Shown here in pieces: positions 4,646-12,172 of a stretch of DNA of 64,000 nucleotides. Under the pieces are notes generated by a model, which worked only from the letters and a program-made list of their open reading frames with translations, did not search any database and had not been told where the DNA came from. Made by a program: the position numbers and the translations under genes. The DNA lies in NCBI GenBank assembly GCA_963848295.1, contig CAWKDB010000010.1, forward strand, positions 800,001-864,000, read 5' to 3'. The number at the start of each line of letters is the position of its first letter. Position 1 is the first letter of the stretch. This stretch comes from an uncultured delta proteobacterium. Lineage in GTDB: Bacteria; Myxococcota_A; Polyangia; Haliangiales; Haliangiaceae.

Positions 4646-5308
4646 ATGAAGAAGCTCGCGTTCCATCCCCTCGATCCGCGCAGCGCGCGCGCCCGCCTCG
4701 TGCTCGCGGCGGCGCTCGGCGTCGTGGCGTGGTTCGTCGAGCCGGCGCGGTTCGCCGCATCGACGCGCGCGGTGATGGCGTGGGACGCCTCGGGCCTGAC
4801 GCTGCTCGTGCTCGGCGTCTTGATCTCGCGGACGACGCCGGAAGGCACGCGCCGCCGCGCCGCCGCACGCGATCCTGGCCGCACGGTCGTCTGGCTCGTC
4901 GTACTCGCGGCGAGCGTGGTCAGCTTGTTCGCCGCCACCGTCGTCGTGCGCGGGTCGAACGACCTGCCTGCTGCCGAGGGACGCCTCGTGCTCGTGCTGA
5001 GCGTCGCGACCGTGTTGATCTCGTGGCTGCTCACCCACACCGCGTTCACGCTGCGCTACGCCCACTTGTACTACCGCGGCGGTCTCGACGACGAAGGCGG
5101 GCTCGATTTCCCCGGCGGTGCCAAGCCGGACGACTACGACTTCGCGTACTTCGCGTTCACGATCGGCATGTGCTTCCAGGTCTCGGACATCACGATCTCG
5201 AATCGCATCGTGCGCCGCACCGTGCTCGCCCACGCGTTCCTGTCGTTCCTCTACAATACGGTCGTGCTCGCGCTCGTCGTCAACCTGATCGTCGGCCACG
5301 CGAGCTAG
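4646..5308 (+). CDS. DUF1345 family membrane protein
   Basis: TM helices; HTAFTLRYAHLYY, GLDFPG, PDDYDFAYFAFTIGMCFQVSD signature. Confidence 0.85.
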   Translation: MKKLAFHPLDPRSARARLVLAAALGVVAWFVEPARFAASTRAVMAWDASGLTLLVLGVLISRTTPEGTRRRAAARDPGRTVVWLVVLAASVVSLFAATVVVRGSNDLPAAEGRLVLVLSVATVLISWLLTHTAFTLRYAHLYYRGGLDDEGGLDFPGGAKPDDYDFAYFAFTIGMCFQVSDITISNRIVRRTVLAHAFLSFLYNTVVLALVVNLIVGHAS

Positions 5309-5316
5309 GCAACTCG

Positions 5317-6372
5317 ATGATCTTTCGCCAGCTCTTCGATCAGGGTTCGAGCACGTACACGTACCTGCTCGCCGACGAGCAGACCCGCGACGCGGTGCTG
5401 ATCGATCCGGTGTTCGAACAGCACCTGCGCGACGCGGCGTTGCTGCGCGAGCTCGGGCTCGCCCTGCGCTACACGCTCGATACGCACTGCCATGCCGATC
5501 ATGTCACCGGTGCGTGGCTGATGAAGGCGGCGATGGGTAGCGAGATCGCGCTGTCGGCGGTGTACGCCGCCGAGCACGTCGACCGCCCGCTCGGCCACGG
5601 CGACACGATCCGCTTCGGCGACTGTTCGCTCGAGGTTCGCGCGACGCCGGGCCACACCGCCGGATGCCTGACGTTCGTCACCGCCGATCACACGACCGCG
5701 TTCACCGGCGATGCGCTGCTCGTGCGCGGTGCCGGCCGCACCGATTTCCAGCAGGGCGACGCCCGCACGTTGTTCCGCTCGATTCACGACCAGCTGTTCA
5801 CGCTCGATGACACTTGCGCGGTCTATCCAGGTCACGATTACGAAGGCCGCACCGCGACGACGATCGGCGAGGAGCGCCGCCACAATCCGCGGATCGGCGG
5901 CGGCGCGCGCGAAGAGGACTTCGTCGGCTACATGACGAACCTCGGCCTGCCTCATCCGAAGCAACTCGCGATCGCGTTGCCGGCGAACCTGCGCGCCGGA
6001 CAGCCCGAGGGCGGCGGCGGCCCGCTGGTCGCGAGCTGGGGCCCGGTGGTCGTGACGTACGCCGGGATGCGAGACATCGCGGCGGAGTGGGTCGCGACCC
6101 ATCGCGACGAGGTGCACGTCCTCGATGTCCGCAGCGGTCCGGAATTCTCCGGCGACCTCGGTCACGTCCATGGCTCGCAATTGATCCCGCTCGACGAGCT
6201 GCGCACGCGCCTCGCCGAGGTCCCGACTGATCGGCCGGTCGTCGTCGTGTGCCAGACCGGCGCGCGCTCGGCGATGGGCGCGACGATCCTCGCGAAGGCC
6301 GGAGTGGACCGCGTCGCGAGCCTCGCCGGCGGGATGATCCGGTGGCGCGAGCTCGGGCTGCCTCGCGAGTAG
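5317..6372 (+). CDS. Persulfide dioxygenase (ETHE1-like MBL fold) fused to a C-terminal rhodanese domain
   Basis: MIFRQLFD..SSTYTYLL, THCHADHVTG, TPGHT, FTGDALL.RG.GRTDFQ, YPGHDY; rhodanese VLDVRS and CQTGARS. Confidence 0.9.
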   Translation: MIFRQLFDQGSSTYTYLLADEQTRDAVLIDPVFEQHLRDAALLRELGLALRYTLDTHCHADHVTGAWLMKAAMGSEIALSAVYAAEHVDRPLGHGDTIRFGDCSLEVRATPGHTAGCLTFVTADHTTAFTGDALLVRGAGRTDFQQGDARTLFRSIHDQLFTLDDTCAVYPGHDYEGRTATTIGEERRHNPRIGGGAREEDFVGYMTNLGLPHPKQLAIALPANLRAGQPEGGGGPLVASWGPVVVTYAGMRDIAAEWVATHRDEVHVLDVRSGPEFSGDLGHVHGSQLIPLDELRTRLAEVPTDRPVVVVCQTGARSAMGATILAKAGVDRVASLAGGMIRWRELGLPRE

Positions 6373-7356
6373 TCAGCGCAGTCGGATCAAGCGCGCGACG
6401 CCGAGCGTCGCCGATAGCTCGAGCCGCGAGTCCGAGTCGCCGAGGCGATGCTCGCCGGCCGCGAGGTCGAACGTGAACGCCCAGCGCGGGCTCATCGCGA
6501 ACCAGATCCCGGCGCGCCCCGTCGCGGTCCAGCCGGTCGCGTCCCACGGCGTGTAGCCCGCGAGCGCGGTCAGCTGCACTGCGGCGAGGCCACCCGCGAA
6601 CGGCTGTCGCAACACGACCGCGGCGTCGAGATCGAGCGGTGCCTGCCGCGGCTCGAAGCCGAGCCACGGTCCGACGAGGACGTGGTCGCCGAGCGGAAAC
6701 AACGCGCCGAGCGCCGCGATGCCGGTGCCGTGGCTCACGCCGCTTTCGCGGATCGCGCCGCCGCCGAGCTCGAGCCGGATCTGCGCGCGATCGACGGCCG
6801 CGAACCCGGGCGCTGCGGCGGCCTCGCCCGCGGTGCCGAGGGTGCGATCGAGGATCGCGAGCAGCTCGGGCGCGCCGACGCGATCATCTTTGACCGACGC
6901 GATCTTGCGATAGGCGATCCGACCGTCGCGGCCGATCACGGTGACACCGGGCAGCGCCGCCGAATCCGACGACATCCCGGCGTACGCTCGCGACACCGCG
7001 CCATCGGCGTCCGATAGCAGCGGAAACCAGATCCCGAGGTCGGCCGCGAACGCGCGCGAATCCTCGGGAGCGTCGAGGCTGATCGCGAGCAGCGTCACGC
7101 CGCGCGTGCGGAACGCCGCTTGGTTACGAGCCAGCTCGCCGAGCTGGTACTTGCACCACGGTCACCAATAGCCGCGATAGAACACGAGCGCGACCGGACC
7201 GTGCGCGAGCTCGTCGCCGAGCGTCACCGTGTGGCCATCCTGCGCCGGCAGGGCGAACGGCGGCGCGACCGAGCCGACCGTGACGGTCGCGGTCGACACG
7301 ACGTGCAAGGACGTCACACAACCGGAGGCGGCAAGAGCGTAAAGGGCGGTGCGCAC
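6373..7356 (-). CDS. Putative selenoprotein: lipoprotein AhpC/TSA (peroxiredoxin-like) domain with UxxC plus a C-terminal beta-barrel-like domain
   Basis: ORFs 7162-7356 and 6373-7098 share a frame; reading through TGA at 7164-7162 gives VALVFYRGYW-U-PWCKYQLGEL; hairpin 14 nt downstream; lipobox LAASGC. Confidence 0.85.
7131..7147 (-). promoter_or_regulatory. Putative bacterial SECIS hairpin
   Basis: CCAGCUC-GGC-GAGCUGG perfect 7-bp stem; G-initial apical loop begins 21 nt after the UGA. Confidence 0.7.
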
Positions 7357-7386: not shown

Positions 7387-9279
7387 CTAACGCGCGAGCG
7401 CGGTGCGGATCAGATCCTTCGGTACGGTCGTCGCCGGCGCGCCTTGCGGGAACCAGCTCGCGAGATCGGCGTCGAGCCCGAGGCCGTGCATGTAGTTGTA
7501 GAGCGCCTTGCGCAGGCCCTCGCCGAGCTGCTCGTGGTTCGTGCCGGTCGGGTCGTCGAACGCGAGGTCGTTGCGCGCGAACGTGATCGCGGGCTCGCGA
7601 TGCAAGCGGATGCCATAGAGCTCGGGCTGCTTGCCGATCGGGCTGTGCGCGGTCGCGGCGAAGCGATGCCAGAACGCCGATTGCACGCAGCCGGCTTCGA
7701 ACAGCTGGCGGACGCGTTCGAGCGAGTCGATCGTCTCCTGCGTGGTCTCGGTCGGAAAGCCGTACATCAAGTACGCGTGGACCATCACGCCGGCGTCGCT
7801 GAACGCGCGCGTGACCCGCGCGACCTGTTCGACCGTGACGCCCTTATCGATCAGGGCGAGCAGGCGATCCGAGGCGACCTCGAGGCCGCCGCTCACCGCG
7901 ACGCAGCCGGAGCGCGCGAGCAACGCCGCGAGCTCGGGCGTGAACGTCTTCTCGAACCGGATGTTGCCCCACCACGTGATCACGACGCCGCGCGCGATCA
8001 GCCGCTCGGCGAGCGAGCGCAACCCGGCGGGCGGCGCCGCTTCGTCGACGAAGTGAAACCCGGTCTGCCCGGTCTCCGCGACGATCGCCTCGATCCGATC
8101 GACGAGCAGGTCGGCGTGCACCGGATCGTAGCGCGCGATGTAATCGAGCGTGACGTCGCAGAACGTGCACTTCTTCCAGTAACAGCCGTGCGCGATCGTG
8201 AGCTTGTTCCACCGGCCGTCGGACCACAGCCGATGCATCGGGTTCAGCATCTCGAATAAGTTCAGGTAGCGGTCAAGCTGTAGCCCAGCGTAGGTCGGCG
8301 TTCCGGCGTCGCGCAGCGGCACGTCGTGAGCGGCGTCGTCGGTGCGTAGCTCGACGCGATCGCCGGCGCGCACGAACGTGCGAAACAACGGCTTGGCTGG
8401 ATCGCGCAGGTGATCGATCAACGCGAGCAGCGGCCGCTCCCCGTCGTCGAGCGTGATGTAGTCGACGTAGTCGAACACGCGCGGATCGGAGAGCTCGCGT
8501 AGCTCGGTGTTCACGAACCCGCCGCCGATCGCGATCCGGACGTGCGACGCCACCGCCTTGATCGCGCGCGCGATGCGGAACGCTCCGTAGACGTTGCCGG
8601 GAAACGGCACGGTCAGGCCGACGAGCTCCGGCTCGTGCTCGGCGTAGAGCTCGCGCGCGATCTCGTCGAGCGTTCCGTCGACGATCGTCGGCTCGCCTTC
8701 GAGCTCGTCGTGCAGCGCGTCGAACGTCGGCGCGCTCGCGGCCAGGTGCTCGCCGTAACGCGACAGCTCGAAGTGCGGCTGGATCCCTTCGCGCACGACG
8801 TCGGCGAGATCGTCGATGTACAGGCTCGCGAGGTGCTTCGCGCGGTCCGCGACGCCGAGCGCGCCGAACGCCCAGCCGAGCGGATCCGCGGCGCCGCGCG
8901 CGATCGCCGCGAACCGCGGGCCTTCGGGCAAGAACGCTCGCGTCGCGATCCGCATCGCGATCGCCGGGTCGCGCCCCTGCAAGAACGCGACGACCGCGTC
9001 GATCGTCTCGACGTAGCGCGCGGCATTCGGCAAGAAGCTCGCGATCGATTGCGGCGGCGCTTCGTCGACGTCGTCGGCGCGCTCCGCGAGCTCGGCCGCG
9101 ATCGCTTCGATCCCTTCGCGCGAGAACACGCGCAGGAACAGCTCGATCGCCGGATCGGCCTGGCGGACGTCGAGCCCGCGCGCCTCGGCGTGCTGGCGCA
9201 GGAACCCGGTCAAGTACGCCGTCGCGGGATACGGCGTGTTGAGCTGCGTCATCGGCGGCGTGAGGAGAAGGATGCGCAA
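7387..9279 (-). CDS. B12-binding-domain radical SAM protein
   Basis: RILLLTPPMTQLNTPYPATAYL N-terminus; GCYWKKCTFC cluster motif; FHFVDEA; probable TTG start at 9279. Confidence 0.85.
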   Translation of the reverse strand: MRILLLTPPMTQLNTPYPATAYLTGFLRQHAEARGLDVRQADPAIELFLRVFSREGIEAIAAELAERADDVDEAPPQSIASFLPNAARYVETIDAVVAFLQGRDPAIAMRIATRAFLPEGPRFAAIARGAADPLGWAFGALGVADRAKHLASLYIDDLADVVREGIQPHFELSRYGEHLAASAPTFDALHDELEGEPTIVDGTLDEIARELYAEHEPELVGLTVPFPGNVYGAFRIARAIKAVASHVRIAIGGGFVNTELRELSDPRVFDYVDYITLDDGERPLLALIDHLRDPAKPLFRTFVRAGDRVELRTDDAAHDVPLRDAGTPTYAGLQLDRYLNLFEMLNPMHRLWSDGRWNKLTIAHGCYWKKCTFCDVTLDYIARYDPVHADLLVDRIEAIVAETGQTGFHFVDEAAPPAGLRSLAERLIARGVVITWWGNIRFEKTFTPELAALLARSGCVAVSGGLEVASDRLLALIDKGVTVEQVARVTRAFSDAGVMVHAYLMYGFPTETTQETIDSLERVRQLFEAGCVQSAFWHRFAATAHSPIGKQPELYGIRLHREPAITFARNDLAFDDPTGTNHEQLGEGLRKALYNYMHGLGLDADLASWFPQGAPATTVPKDLIRTALAR

Positions 9280-9319
9280 CGCGGGTCCATCGTAGCTGGC
9301 TGAGGTACGGTCGGCCACG

Positions 9320-10153
9320 ATGCGGCTCAACAAGTACCTCGGCGAGAGCGGCCGATGGTCGCGGCGCGAGGCCGACACCCTGATCGAACAAGGCCGGGTC
9401 ACGCTCAACGGTGCACCGGCCCCGCTCGGCGCTCAGGTCAACCCCGGTGACGAGGTCAAGGTCGACGGCGACCTCGTCGGCGGCGCGCGCAAGCTCGAGC
9501 GCCCGGTCTACATCGTGCTCAACAAACCGGTCGGCGTGACCTGCACGACCGAGCGTCACGTCGAAGGCAACATCATCGACTTCGTCGACCACCCCGAGCG
9601 GATCTTCCCGATCGGCCGGCTCGACAAGGACTCCGAAGGCCTGATCCTGCTGACGAACGACGGCGACATCGTCAACGAGGTCCTGCGGTCCGAGCACGAC
9701 CACGACAAGGAGTACGTCGTCGCGGTCGATCGCGGACTCGACGCAGACTTTGCCTCGAAGATGGCCAACGGCGTGCGGCTGTCGGAGGGCACGACGAAGC
9801 GCTGCAAGGTCGTGGTCCACGGCCCCAAGACGTTCACGATCGTGCTGACCCAAGGATGGAATCGTCAGATCCGCCGGATGTGCGAAGCGTTCGGCTATCA
9901 GGTCGTGGCGCTCGAGCGCGTGCGGTTCATGAACGTCGTGCTCGGCAACCTCGCGATCGGCCGATGGCGCAACCTCACGCCGCAAGAGCTCGCAGGGCTG
10001 AAATCCGCGGCGCCGCCTCGCAAGCCCGGAGCACAGCCTCCGAATCCCGGACACGCTCGTCCGAATCCCGGACACGCTCGTCCGAATCCCGGACACGCTC
10101 GTCCGAGTCCCGGCAGTCATCGCGGTCGCAGCGGGCGGCGCGGCGGGCGCTGA
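9320..10153 (+). CDS. rluF: 23S rRNA pseudouridine synthase, RluF/RluB/RsuA family
   Basis: S4 domain MRLNKYL..SRREAD; LNKPVG; IFPIGRLDKDSEGLILLTNDG; LTQGWNRQIRRMCE. Confidence 0.8.
   Translation: MRLNKYLGESGRWSRREADTLIEQGRVTLNGAPAPLGAQVNPGDEVKVDGDLVGGARKLERPVYIVLNKPVGVTCTTERHVEGNIIDFVDHPERIFPIGRLDKDSEGLILLTNDGDIVNEVLRSEHDHDKEYVVAVDRGLDADFASKMANGVRLSEGTTKRCKVVVHGPKTFTIVLTQGWNRQIRRMCEAFGYQVVALERVRFMNVVLGNLAIGRWRNLTPQELAGLKSAAPPRKPGAQPPNPGHARPNPGHARPNPGHARPSPGSHRGRSGRRGGR
10040..10114 (+). repeat. 21-bp coding tandem repeat, 3 exact copies plus a partial one (PNPGHAR)
   Basis: ccgaatcccggacacgctcgt at 10040, 10061, 10082; degenerate ccgagtcccggc at 10103. Confidence 0.95.
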
Positions 10154-10372
10154 GTACGCGTTCGCGGCAAGCCTACACCGGCCGACACGACAGGCCGGCG
10201 GTTACGATCGGGGTAACCAGTTTCTGCGATTCTTTACCCCGCTTCGGATAGCGATCGGGTGTTCTCGACGAGGAATCGCGGATGGTCATCGACGTTCATC
10301 GTTCGCGATGTGCGACGTGCGCCGCTCGTGGCGCACCTAGCTTCGCCGTCCCAGATCAGTACATTGGATCCA

Positions 10373-12172
10373 GTGAAGCTTCACGCTGTAATCGTTGTCG
10401 CTGCGTCGTGCATCCTCGGCTGTGGCAGTCACCAAGCCGACAATTCTTCTCCGGATGCCGGCATCGTGCTCGACGACGCCGCGGTCGATGCGCCCGGTGG
10501 CCCGACGTGCGGCAACGGCAAGCTCGATCCGGGCGAGACCTGCGACGACGGCAACACCACGTCGGGCGACGGCTGCTCGTCCAATTGCTCGATCGAGACC
10601 GGCTTCGCATGCGGTGAGCCCGGCACGTTGTGCTTGTCGACCCACACCTGCGGCAACGGCATCGTCGAGGATCTCGAGGGCTGCGACGATCACAACACGA
10701 CGAGCGGTGACGGCTGCAGCTCGAGCTGCCAGCTCGAAGCCGGTTGGACGTGTCCGGTCCCCGGCATTCGGTGCTCGGCCGCGAGCTGCGGCGATGGCAT
10801 CGTCGCCGGGTTCGAAGAGTGCGACTTGGGCGCGGCCAACGGCACGGGCGCCGGCTGCACCGCCGACTGCAAGATCCAACAAGGCTGGGACTGCCCGCCG
10901 ATGACGACGTGCTCGCAGACCACGTGCGGCGACGGGGTGGTGCAGGGCTTCCCGTACGGCACCGAAGAGTGCGACGACGGCAACGACGACCTCGGCGACG
11001 GCTGCGACCCGCTGTGTCAGCGCGAGCCGATCTGCGCGACCGACGGCACGTGCACCGCGGTGTGCGGCGACGGCGTGCTGCAAGCCGGCGAGCTGTGCGA
11101 CGACGGCAACCTCGAAAACTTCGACGGCTGCTCGAGCACGTGCATGCCGGAGACCGGCTTCACGTGCACGCCGGTCACCGATGGCGAGCCGGCGACGTTG
11201 GCGGTCACGATCGTCTACCGCGACTTCATCGGCGACGACATCGCAGGTGGCTTTGTCGACTTCGAGAACAAGAACGGCGCGGAGAGCGGCCTGCTCGGCC
11301 CGCTGTACACGTCGACGCTGGATAGCGATGGCAAGCCGGTCCTGACGAAGGCGAACCCGAGCACGGTGAGCAGCTCCGCGACGTTCGCCGAATGGTATCG
11401 CGACGAGCCGGGCACGAACCTCACGATCCCGTCGACCCTCACGCTGACCGATCAGGGCTCGAACACGTACCTGTTCGATAGCCAGGCGTTCTTCCCGCTC
11501 GACAACCTCGGCTGGGTCGCGCTCGGCGACGAGCCCGCGCGCGACGGCGGCCACAACTTCAGCTTCACCTCGGAGCTCGCGTACTGGTTCACCTGGAGCG
11601 GCACGGCGAACGAGAAGCTGACGTTCCGCGGCGACGACGACGTCTTCGTGTTCATCAACGGCCGGCTCGCCGTCGACCTCGGCGGCGTGCACAGCGCGGA
11701 GACCGGCTCGGTCACGCTCGACGCCGCGACCGGCGCGAAGCTCGGGATGGTCGCGGGCGGCACCTACCAGGTCGATGTGTTCCAGGCCGAGCGCCACACG
11801 AGCGGGTCGTCGTATCAGCTCACGCTGGAGGGCTTCAACGCGCCACATAGCCAGTGCGTGTCGACGTGCGGCGATGGCATCACCTCGTCGCAAGAGGCGT
11901 GCGACGACGGCACGAACGACGGTAGCTACGGCTCGTGCACGCCGGATTGCCTCGGCTTCGGCCCGCGTTGCGGCGACGGCATCGTGCAGCCCGATCACGA
12001 ACAATGCGACGACGGCACGAACACCGGCGGTTACAACCACTGCAATCCGAACTGCACGCTCGGCCCGCGCTGTGGCGACGGCATCGTCCAGACCGCCGAT
12101 GGCGAGGCCTGCGACGACGGCAACGACGATCCGAACGACGGCTGCGACAACTGCCAGGTCGTGATCCAGTAG
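10373..12172 (+). CDS. Cys-rich DUF4215 (myxobacterial disulfide repeat) lipoprotein with a fibro-slime (PA14-like) domain
   Basis: Lipobox ILGC; many CG(N/D)G..E.CDDGN...GDGC repeats; YRDF, FFPLD, HNFSFTSE, FRGDDDVFVFING.LAVDLGGVH, FQAERH. Confidence 0.9.
   Translation: MKLHAVIVVAASCILGCGSHQADNSSPDAGIVLDDAAVDAPGGPTCGNGKLDPGETCDDGNTTSGDGCSSNCSIETGFACGEPGTLCLSTHTCGNGIVEDLEGCDDHNTTSGDGCSSSCQLEAGWTCPVPGIRCSAASCGDGIVAGFEECDLGAANGTGAGCTADCKIQQGWDCPPMTTCSQTTCGDGVVQGFPYGTEECDDGNDDLGDGCDPLCQREPICATDGTCTAVCGDGVLQAGELCDDGNLENFDGCSSTCMPETGFTCTPVTDGEPATLAVTIVYRDFIGDDIAGGFVDFENKNGAESGLLGPLYTSTLDSDGKPVLTKANPSTVSSSATFAEWYRDEPGTNLTIPSTLTLTDQGSNTYLFDSQAFFPLDNLGWVALGDEPARDGGHNFSFTSELAYWFTWSGTANEKLTFRGDDDVFVFINGRLAVDLGGVHSAETGSVTLDAATGAKLGMVAGGTYQVDVFQAERHTSGSSYQLTLEGFNAPHSQCVSTCGDGITSSQEACDDGTNDGSYGSCTPDCLGFGPRCGDGIVQPDHEQCDDGTNTGGYNHCNPNCTLGPRCGDGIVQTADGEACDDGNDDPNDGCDNCQVVIQ

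Follow-up and report, generated by a model that had tools for sequence, protein, structure and literature searches.

A predicted lipoprotein selenoprotein of an uncultured myxobacterium joins a UxxC thioredoxin-fold domain to an eight-stranded outer-membrane-type beta-barrel

Peroxiredoxin (Prx)-like thiol:disulfide oxidoreductase selenoproteins belong to PF00578 and carry UxxC or UxxU motifs, in which U is selenocysteine (Sec) (Table 1 of PMC13188914; PMC9312934). Selenoproteins are also found among outer-membrane barrels, where the same Table 1 lists the GSU2204-family MtrB/PioB barrel and the FCYXU TonB-dependent receptor, and among lipoproteins, as in the case of SaoX (bioRxiv 10.1101/2022.07.06.499078). 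The gene described here lies on the minus strand of a 64,000-nucleotide (nt) window, the whole stretch analyzed (positions 800,001 to 864,000 of contig CAWKDB010000010.1 from an uncultured myxobacterium), and all coordinates are positions in this window. The Sec family to which it belongs, PF00578 with UxxC, is known, and the combination of a lipoprotein signal, a UxxC thioredoxin fold and an eight-stranded barrel is apparently undescribed. The original prediction had not recognized this architecture either, and no description of the fusion was found in the openly accessible literature that was searched, supplements aside.

The gene occupies positions 6373–7356. Its frame runs from GTG at 7356 to the terminal TGA at 6375–6373, and the sole internal stop is a TGA at 7164–7162, codon 65. 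If this UGA is selenocysteine, the product has 327 residues and contains FYRGYW-U65-PW-C68, in which Sec65 (7162–7164) takes the first position of U-P-W-C and Cys68 (7153–7155) is the predicted resolving cysteine. Under the standard code, the listing of open reading frames (ORFs) shows just the downstream piece of 241 residues from GTG 7098, and the database entries consist of this piece alone. The original prediction had seen one gene split by a TGA and broken by standard annotation, with the UGA at the first Cys of a CxxC motif and a perfect hairpin with a G-initial loop 21 nt behind it. All of this holds: the 327-codon frame has no further internal stop, Cys occupies the same place in fused homologues, and the hairpin is found at 7147–7131.

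The bacterial Sec insertion sequence (SECIS) model of PMC13188914 has a loop of 3–9 nt, a stem of 4–16 bp, a spacing of 16–37 nt, a G in loop position 1 or 2, and a minimum free energy (MFE) of at most -7.5 kcal/mol. The hairpin CCAGCUC-GGC-GAGCUGG (7131–7147), which overlaps the codons for Y-Q-L-G-E-L-A, has 7 bp and a 3-nt GGC loop with its G 21 nt past the UGA, and lies within every one of these limits as they stand in the Fig. 2 legend of that paper. The MFE of the identical hairpin in locus L049 is -11.1 kcal/mol, and that of the 42-nt window is -16.3 kcal/mol. Equally good hairpins at 18–24 nt accompany 547 of the 156,896 TGA trinucleotides of the genome (0.35%), and genome codon usage gives a probability of 0.12 for a perfect 6-bp stem encoding QLGEL.

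Conservation is strong evidence for the SECIS, even though its figures come from relatives that are not independent and are not p-values. In an alignment of 26 UGA sequences (24 distinct) picked for their Gln-Leu-Gly codons, 100% of the cells are paired. One stem pair changes from G-C to A-U through two synonymous, compensatory changes in 4 sequences, which come from both the fused and the stand-alone subfamilies. Another changes from C-G to G-C in 7 sequences, where amino acids are altered as well, and this is weaker evidence. The loop codon is GGT in 11/18, compared with a usage of 11–13%. Among 34 distinct proteins recovered from 46 loci, the 33 with TGA all have 7/7 Watson-Crick pairs, and the one with TGC has 5/7. 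The motif was found in 15 of 16 further loci, some of which repeat earlier sequences, and L112 was missed by the motif pattern. All 15 have TGA; the stem shows 7/7 pairs in 11, relies on G-U in three, and has one mismatch in L105.

Several related proteins were also observed. Stand-alone UxxC AhpC/TSA proteins without a barrel (L037, L038, L040, L060–L063) have the same QLGEL-encoded SECIS, and several of them have lipoprotein-like starts. The SECIS alignment omits the UGA paralogues L039, L041, L043 and L064–L067. Among these, L064–L066 form a subfamily (FYRGHW-U-PFC) with no obvious signal peptide and a different, shifted hairpin, CUCCGCC-AGUU-GGCGGAG, and the hairpin of L067 is imperfect. 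L041, in which membrane helices at the N-terminus precede FYRGFW-TGA-PF-TGA, is a double-Sec (UxxU) version. The perfect stem is missing from the Cys paralogues L042, L044 and L050–L054.

Full-length orthologues with 35–63% identity occur in 17 of 36 genomes of the same genus, all with TGA at codon 65. A profile search of 138 family genomes found matches at E<=1e-45 in 49, and the single in-frame TGA is present in 49/49. All 44 distinct fused sequences of the UGA type have TGA at this place, and it is kept, with both halves intact, down to 36% identity. The closest named orthologue, 86–88% identical, is in a Kofleriaceae (Myxococcota) assembly. The unpublished genome G010 is counted in the 36-genome, 138-genome, selA, SelD and rhodanese tallies, and its locus L040 contributes one row each to the SECIS alignment and the tree below; G480, likewise unpublished, is counted in the 138-genome and rhodanese tallies. 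Both lie outside the 49 carriers, and no conclusion rests on either.

Cys and UGA alternate within the same fused architecture. When the barrel profile was searched against 1.84 billion representatives, 65 matches were found and 54 of them carry the redox half; the other 11 are nine short pieces (49–156 residues), one divergent 99-residue fragment and one unrelated repeat protein. The four full-length matches have Cys (P0143, P0148, P0151) or Ser (P0138) at the Sec position; in each of them the N-terminal signal ends in a Cys, and P0148 is annotated as 'peroxiredoxin family protein [Myxococcales]'. L075 of Polyangiaceae, a relative of P0148, has TGC there and keeps QLGEL with a broken stem; its genome, whose completeness is not given, has no selA, selB or tRNA-Sec above cut-off. 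A quick tree of 72 redox domains groups all 49 fused forms on a single branch (SH-aLRT 99) and leaves the 23 stand-alone forms outside it, a topology that is consistent with a single fusion event. Trp67 is present in 48/49 fused domains and 0/23 stand-alone domains.

The source genome (7.8 Mb, 85% complete) contains selA, selB, selD and tRNA-Sec, each above cut-off; the variable arm of the tRNA is long, its anticodon is UCA and its discriminator is G. The SelD of this genome is a Cys version. In the genus, 15 of 35 SelD matches contain TGA, and the lineage therefore uses Sec. A selA match was obtained in 47/49 carrier genomes, one of them a contig-end fragment below cut-off, and the two carriers without a match have tRNA-Sec and selB. 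Sec is almost certainly inserted at the UGA.

The N-terminus consists of a short predicted lipoprotein signal peptide (residues 1–12) with a basic Arg2 and a short apolar stretch, followed by A-S-G-C13 (7318–7356). Cys13, the predicted lipid-attachment site, is invariant in 18/18 aligned orthologues. In the lipobox, seen as LAASGC in the original prediction, position -3 is Ala and not the canonical Leu of L-[AST]-[GA]-C. Short signals are normal in the source genome, where at least 399 lipoprotein-like ORFs have signal peptides of mostly just 12–16 residues; 12–13-residue signals account for 136/399 in a scan that was unable to count any shorter than 12. The +2 residue, Val, differs from both inner-membrane signals given in PMC3222651, which are Asp in E. 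coli and Lys in M. xanthus.

The redox domain (about residues 22–175, 6832–7293) matches AhpC-TSA (PF00578) over residues 27–149, spanning the TGA, with E=2.7e-28 and 98.9 bits against a cut-off of 26, and is modeled by AlphaFold as a thioredoxin fold. AhpE FFPLAFTGIC aligns to FYRGYWUPWC. In this alignment Cys68, invariant in 18/18, falls on the AhpE peroxidatic Cys, Arg61 and Sec65 replace the peroxiredoxin Pro and Thr, and the PxxxTxxC motif of peroxiredoxins proper is absent. The catalytic Arg is also absent, as AhpE Arg116 aligns to Pro136 (6949–6951), which is invariant in 87/87 sequences and takes the thioredoxin-type cis-Pro position, where its geometry is presumably cis. Since the triad is missing and the thioredoxin-type Pro is invariant, the protein is not a peroxiredoxin, and this identity was rejected; the earlier label 'peroxiredoxin-like' remains apt for the fold but not for the catalytic site. 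The PrxU model gives 29 bits against a cut-off of 270, and the SelL-related redox protein model (NF040769) gives 52 bits against a curated cut-off of 120. The protein is a member of the UxxC selenoproteins that are predicted to be Prx-like thiol:disulfide oxidoreductases.

The C-terminal part (residues 191–324, 6385–6786) is modeled as an eight-stranded outer-membrane-type beta-barrel (pTM, the predicted template-modeling score, 0.84 for the whole model), in line with the small barrel originally proposed. Its closest fold matches are NspA, OprF, OmpA and OmpW, and the eight antiparallel strands superpose on solved barrels. Sequence identity to the eight-stranded barrels compared, which also include PagL and Legionella porin III, is 9–14%. 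Hydrophobic and polar faces alternate clearly in 6–7 of the 8 strands, strand 2 being irregular and strand 3 only partly alternating. The turns are short and fixed, the loops variable, and the conserved residues R190, Q192, R250, P252, W285 and A287 gather at the turn end. Pfam and NCBIfam have no match for the barrel at cut-off; 0/18 barrels reach E 0.01 in Pfam, the best being MipA with E=0.012 in one, and the barrel is not among the 12 genome matches of OMP_b-brl (PF13505). A barrel fold is very probable from the model.

The explanation that we favor, with moderate confidence for the whole, is a lipid- and barrel-anchored selenol/thiol oxidoreductase that faces the periplasm. SelB would bind the GGC/GGU-loop hairpin just past the UGA and deliver Sec-tRNA, and translation would run on through the barrel. 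Export would be directed by the short signal peptide, Cys13 would be lipidated, and the barrel, mainly an anchor and scaffold, would insert in the outer membrane, so that both anchors keep the thioredoxin-fold domain at the periplasmic face. Lipidation together with this orientation is likely. As a TlpA/thioredoxin-type thiol-disulfide oxidoreductase, the protein would attack an oxidized sulfur with the Sec65 selenolate, most likely a wrong disulfide or a sulfenic acid in some protein of the outer membrane or the periplasm. The intermediate would be resolved by Cys68 to a Se-S bond, and electrons would come back from a DsbD/CcdA-type inner-membrane carrier via a soluble shuttle. The chances that the substrate is a protein disulfide and that electrons take this path are, jointly, about even. 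Of the earlier proposal, an exported Sec65 thiol oxidoreductase tethered to a small outer-membrane barrel, the frame, the UGA and the barrel fold are borne out by the analysis, and export, lipidation and Sec insertion are steps that we infer. The findings named in advance as refuting it did not turn up: the genome does have the Sec genes, close homologues are not all Cys forms lacking a conserved hairpin, and the C-terminus does model as a barrel.

Some observations weigh against this explanation. The best structural and sequence matches of the redox domain are the AhpE and BCP peroxiredoxins, and in the Ser-x-x-Cys variant P0138 the sole Cys left is the one in the peroxidatic position. In the first protein search, 76/76 close matches began downstream of the UGA, without the active site, and the GTG at 7098 could start the 241-residue product. 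Folding energy by itself is weak evidence for the SECIS, with z = -2.0 in the 42-nt stretch that follows the UGA and z = -0.3 and -0.4 in stretches of 65 and 86 nt.

The peroxiredoxin matches and P0138 would suit a selenoprotein of the same location that reduces peroxides or small oxidants, such as lipid hydroperoxides, by selenol chemistry, and periplasmic peroxiredoxins such as PprX are described in PMC3322552. This alternative is rather unlikely: Arg61, Sec65 and Pro136 stand in place of the Prx triad of Pro, Thr and Arg, and the related periplasmic PrxL, of the different subfamily PRX_like1, is reported in PMC3322552 to have no detectable peroxidase activity.

The barrel might also have a function of its own: a small molecule from outside (polysulfide, disulfide, metalloid oxyanion or quinone) would enter the barrel or bind to it and be offered to the Sec site docked at its periplasmic mouth. 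The occurrence of the barrel only with the redox domain (54/65 representatives, nine of the other 11 being short pieces), the clustering of conserved residues at the turn end, the restriction of Trp67 to fused forms, the pTM, which suggests a fixed domain arrangement, and OmpW among the fold matches all fit this possibility. On the other hand, OmpA/NspA-type eight-stranded barrels are usually closed by polar networks and the extracellular loops here are short and variable, so that we regard a functional barrel as quite doubtful. A single-chain outer-membrane redox device, with a barrel that takes up or binds a sulfur, selenium or other oxidized small molecule from outside, passes it to the Sec site docked at its periplasmic mouth and so couples uptake or sensing to reduction, is likewise an improbable, tentative idea.

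Surface display of the redox domain, with action on extracellular or prey proteins, is highly improbable, as the N-terminus of this barrel class is periplasmic, the lumen is too narrow for a chain, and no obvious electron donor is present outside. What speaks for it is that myxobacteria send some lipoproteins to the extracellular matrix, as described in PMC3222651. Least credible of all is that translation truly ends at the UGA (in a pseudogene, through a sequencing error or between two distinct proteins) or that Cys or Trp is inserted there, as the truncated database matches and the GTG at 7098 would allow. TGA persists between intact halves in distant orthologues, and the downstream piece has neither a signal peptide nor an active site. 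The tRNA with anticodon UCA, which has a G discriminator, is scored as tRNA-Sec, and the gene itself ends in TGA, which therefore is not generally reassigned.

Neighboring genes of the orthologues are not conserved. On the opposite strand (window 5305–6372, plus), a metallo-beta-lactamase-fold and rhodanese fusion, probably a persulfide dioxygenase/sulfurtransferase, ends one base from the stop of the gene; none was seen beside orthologues. On the same strand, a B12-binding radical SAM gene (7387–9408, minus) ends 30 nt upstream; it is possibly co-transcribed and is not a conserved neighbor. A very cysteine-rich repeat lipoprotein-like ORF (10259–12172, plus) might, speculatively, exemplify the disulfide-rich exported proteins that are possible clients of an envelope oxidoreductase. 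Elsewhere in the genome, a 135-residue rhodanese-domain lipoprotein with FYCHNES-U-HAC (G000:C2:299164–299568, minus; L070:862–1269) is likely a second exported selenoprotein. Its hairpin, CCGCCGC-GGUC-GCGGCGG, lies 20 nt past the UGA, and homologues occur in 53/61 genomes of the genus, most matches having one TGA. This lipoprotein and the present gene are the only convincing selenoprotein candidates in the genome scans, which were non-exhaustive.

Envelope thiol oxidoreductases are mostly located at the inner membrane or free in the periplasm. The present enzyme appears to be held in the outer membrane by both of its ends and to use selenium, and it occurs in about one third of the genomes of this uncultured family of soil myxobacteria. 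Protein databases do not reveal it, their close matches being truncated, with the active site missing. It is a concrete case on which to test whether cells organize redox repair at their outer membrane and whether an enzyme can make use of a small barrel, and the natural Cys versions P0143, P0148 and P0151 permit biochemistry without Sec engineering.

Like the Prx-like selenoproteins, the protein has an AhpC-TSA domain, UxxC and a SECIS right after the UGA; the tables for that group, whose function is predicted only, give neither a lipoprotein signal nor a C-terminal barrel. The CxxC proteins of PRX_like2 (cd02970), compared by their description in PMC3514251, similarly have the second Cys at the peroxidatic place and lack the other triad residues, whereas the present protein differs by its predicted Sec at the first position, its predicted lipid anchor and its barrel fusion. 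Sec in an outer-membrane barrel protein is shared with the GSU2204-family MtrB/PioB barrel and the FCYXU TonB-dependent receptor. These barrels belong to different, larger families, and neither the 119 families of Table 1 of PMC13188914 nor the tables of PMC9312934 include an entry in which a small barrel carries a thioredoxin-fold domain. With TlpA/ResA and Caulobacter PrxL, the protein shares a thioredoxin fold, predicted here to be exported as well, a WCxxC-type site and the Pro at the cis-Pro position, and a donor of the DsbD/CcdA/ScsB type is likewise plausible. OmpA and OprF carry a C-terminal peptidoglycan-binding domain, whereas the soluble domain of the present protein is N-terminal and predicted to be lipidated.
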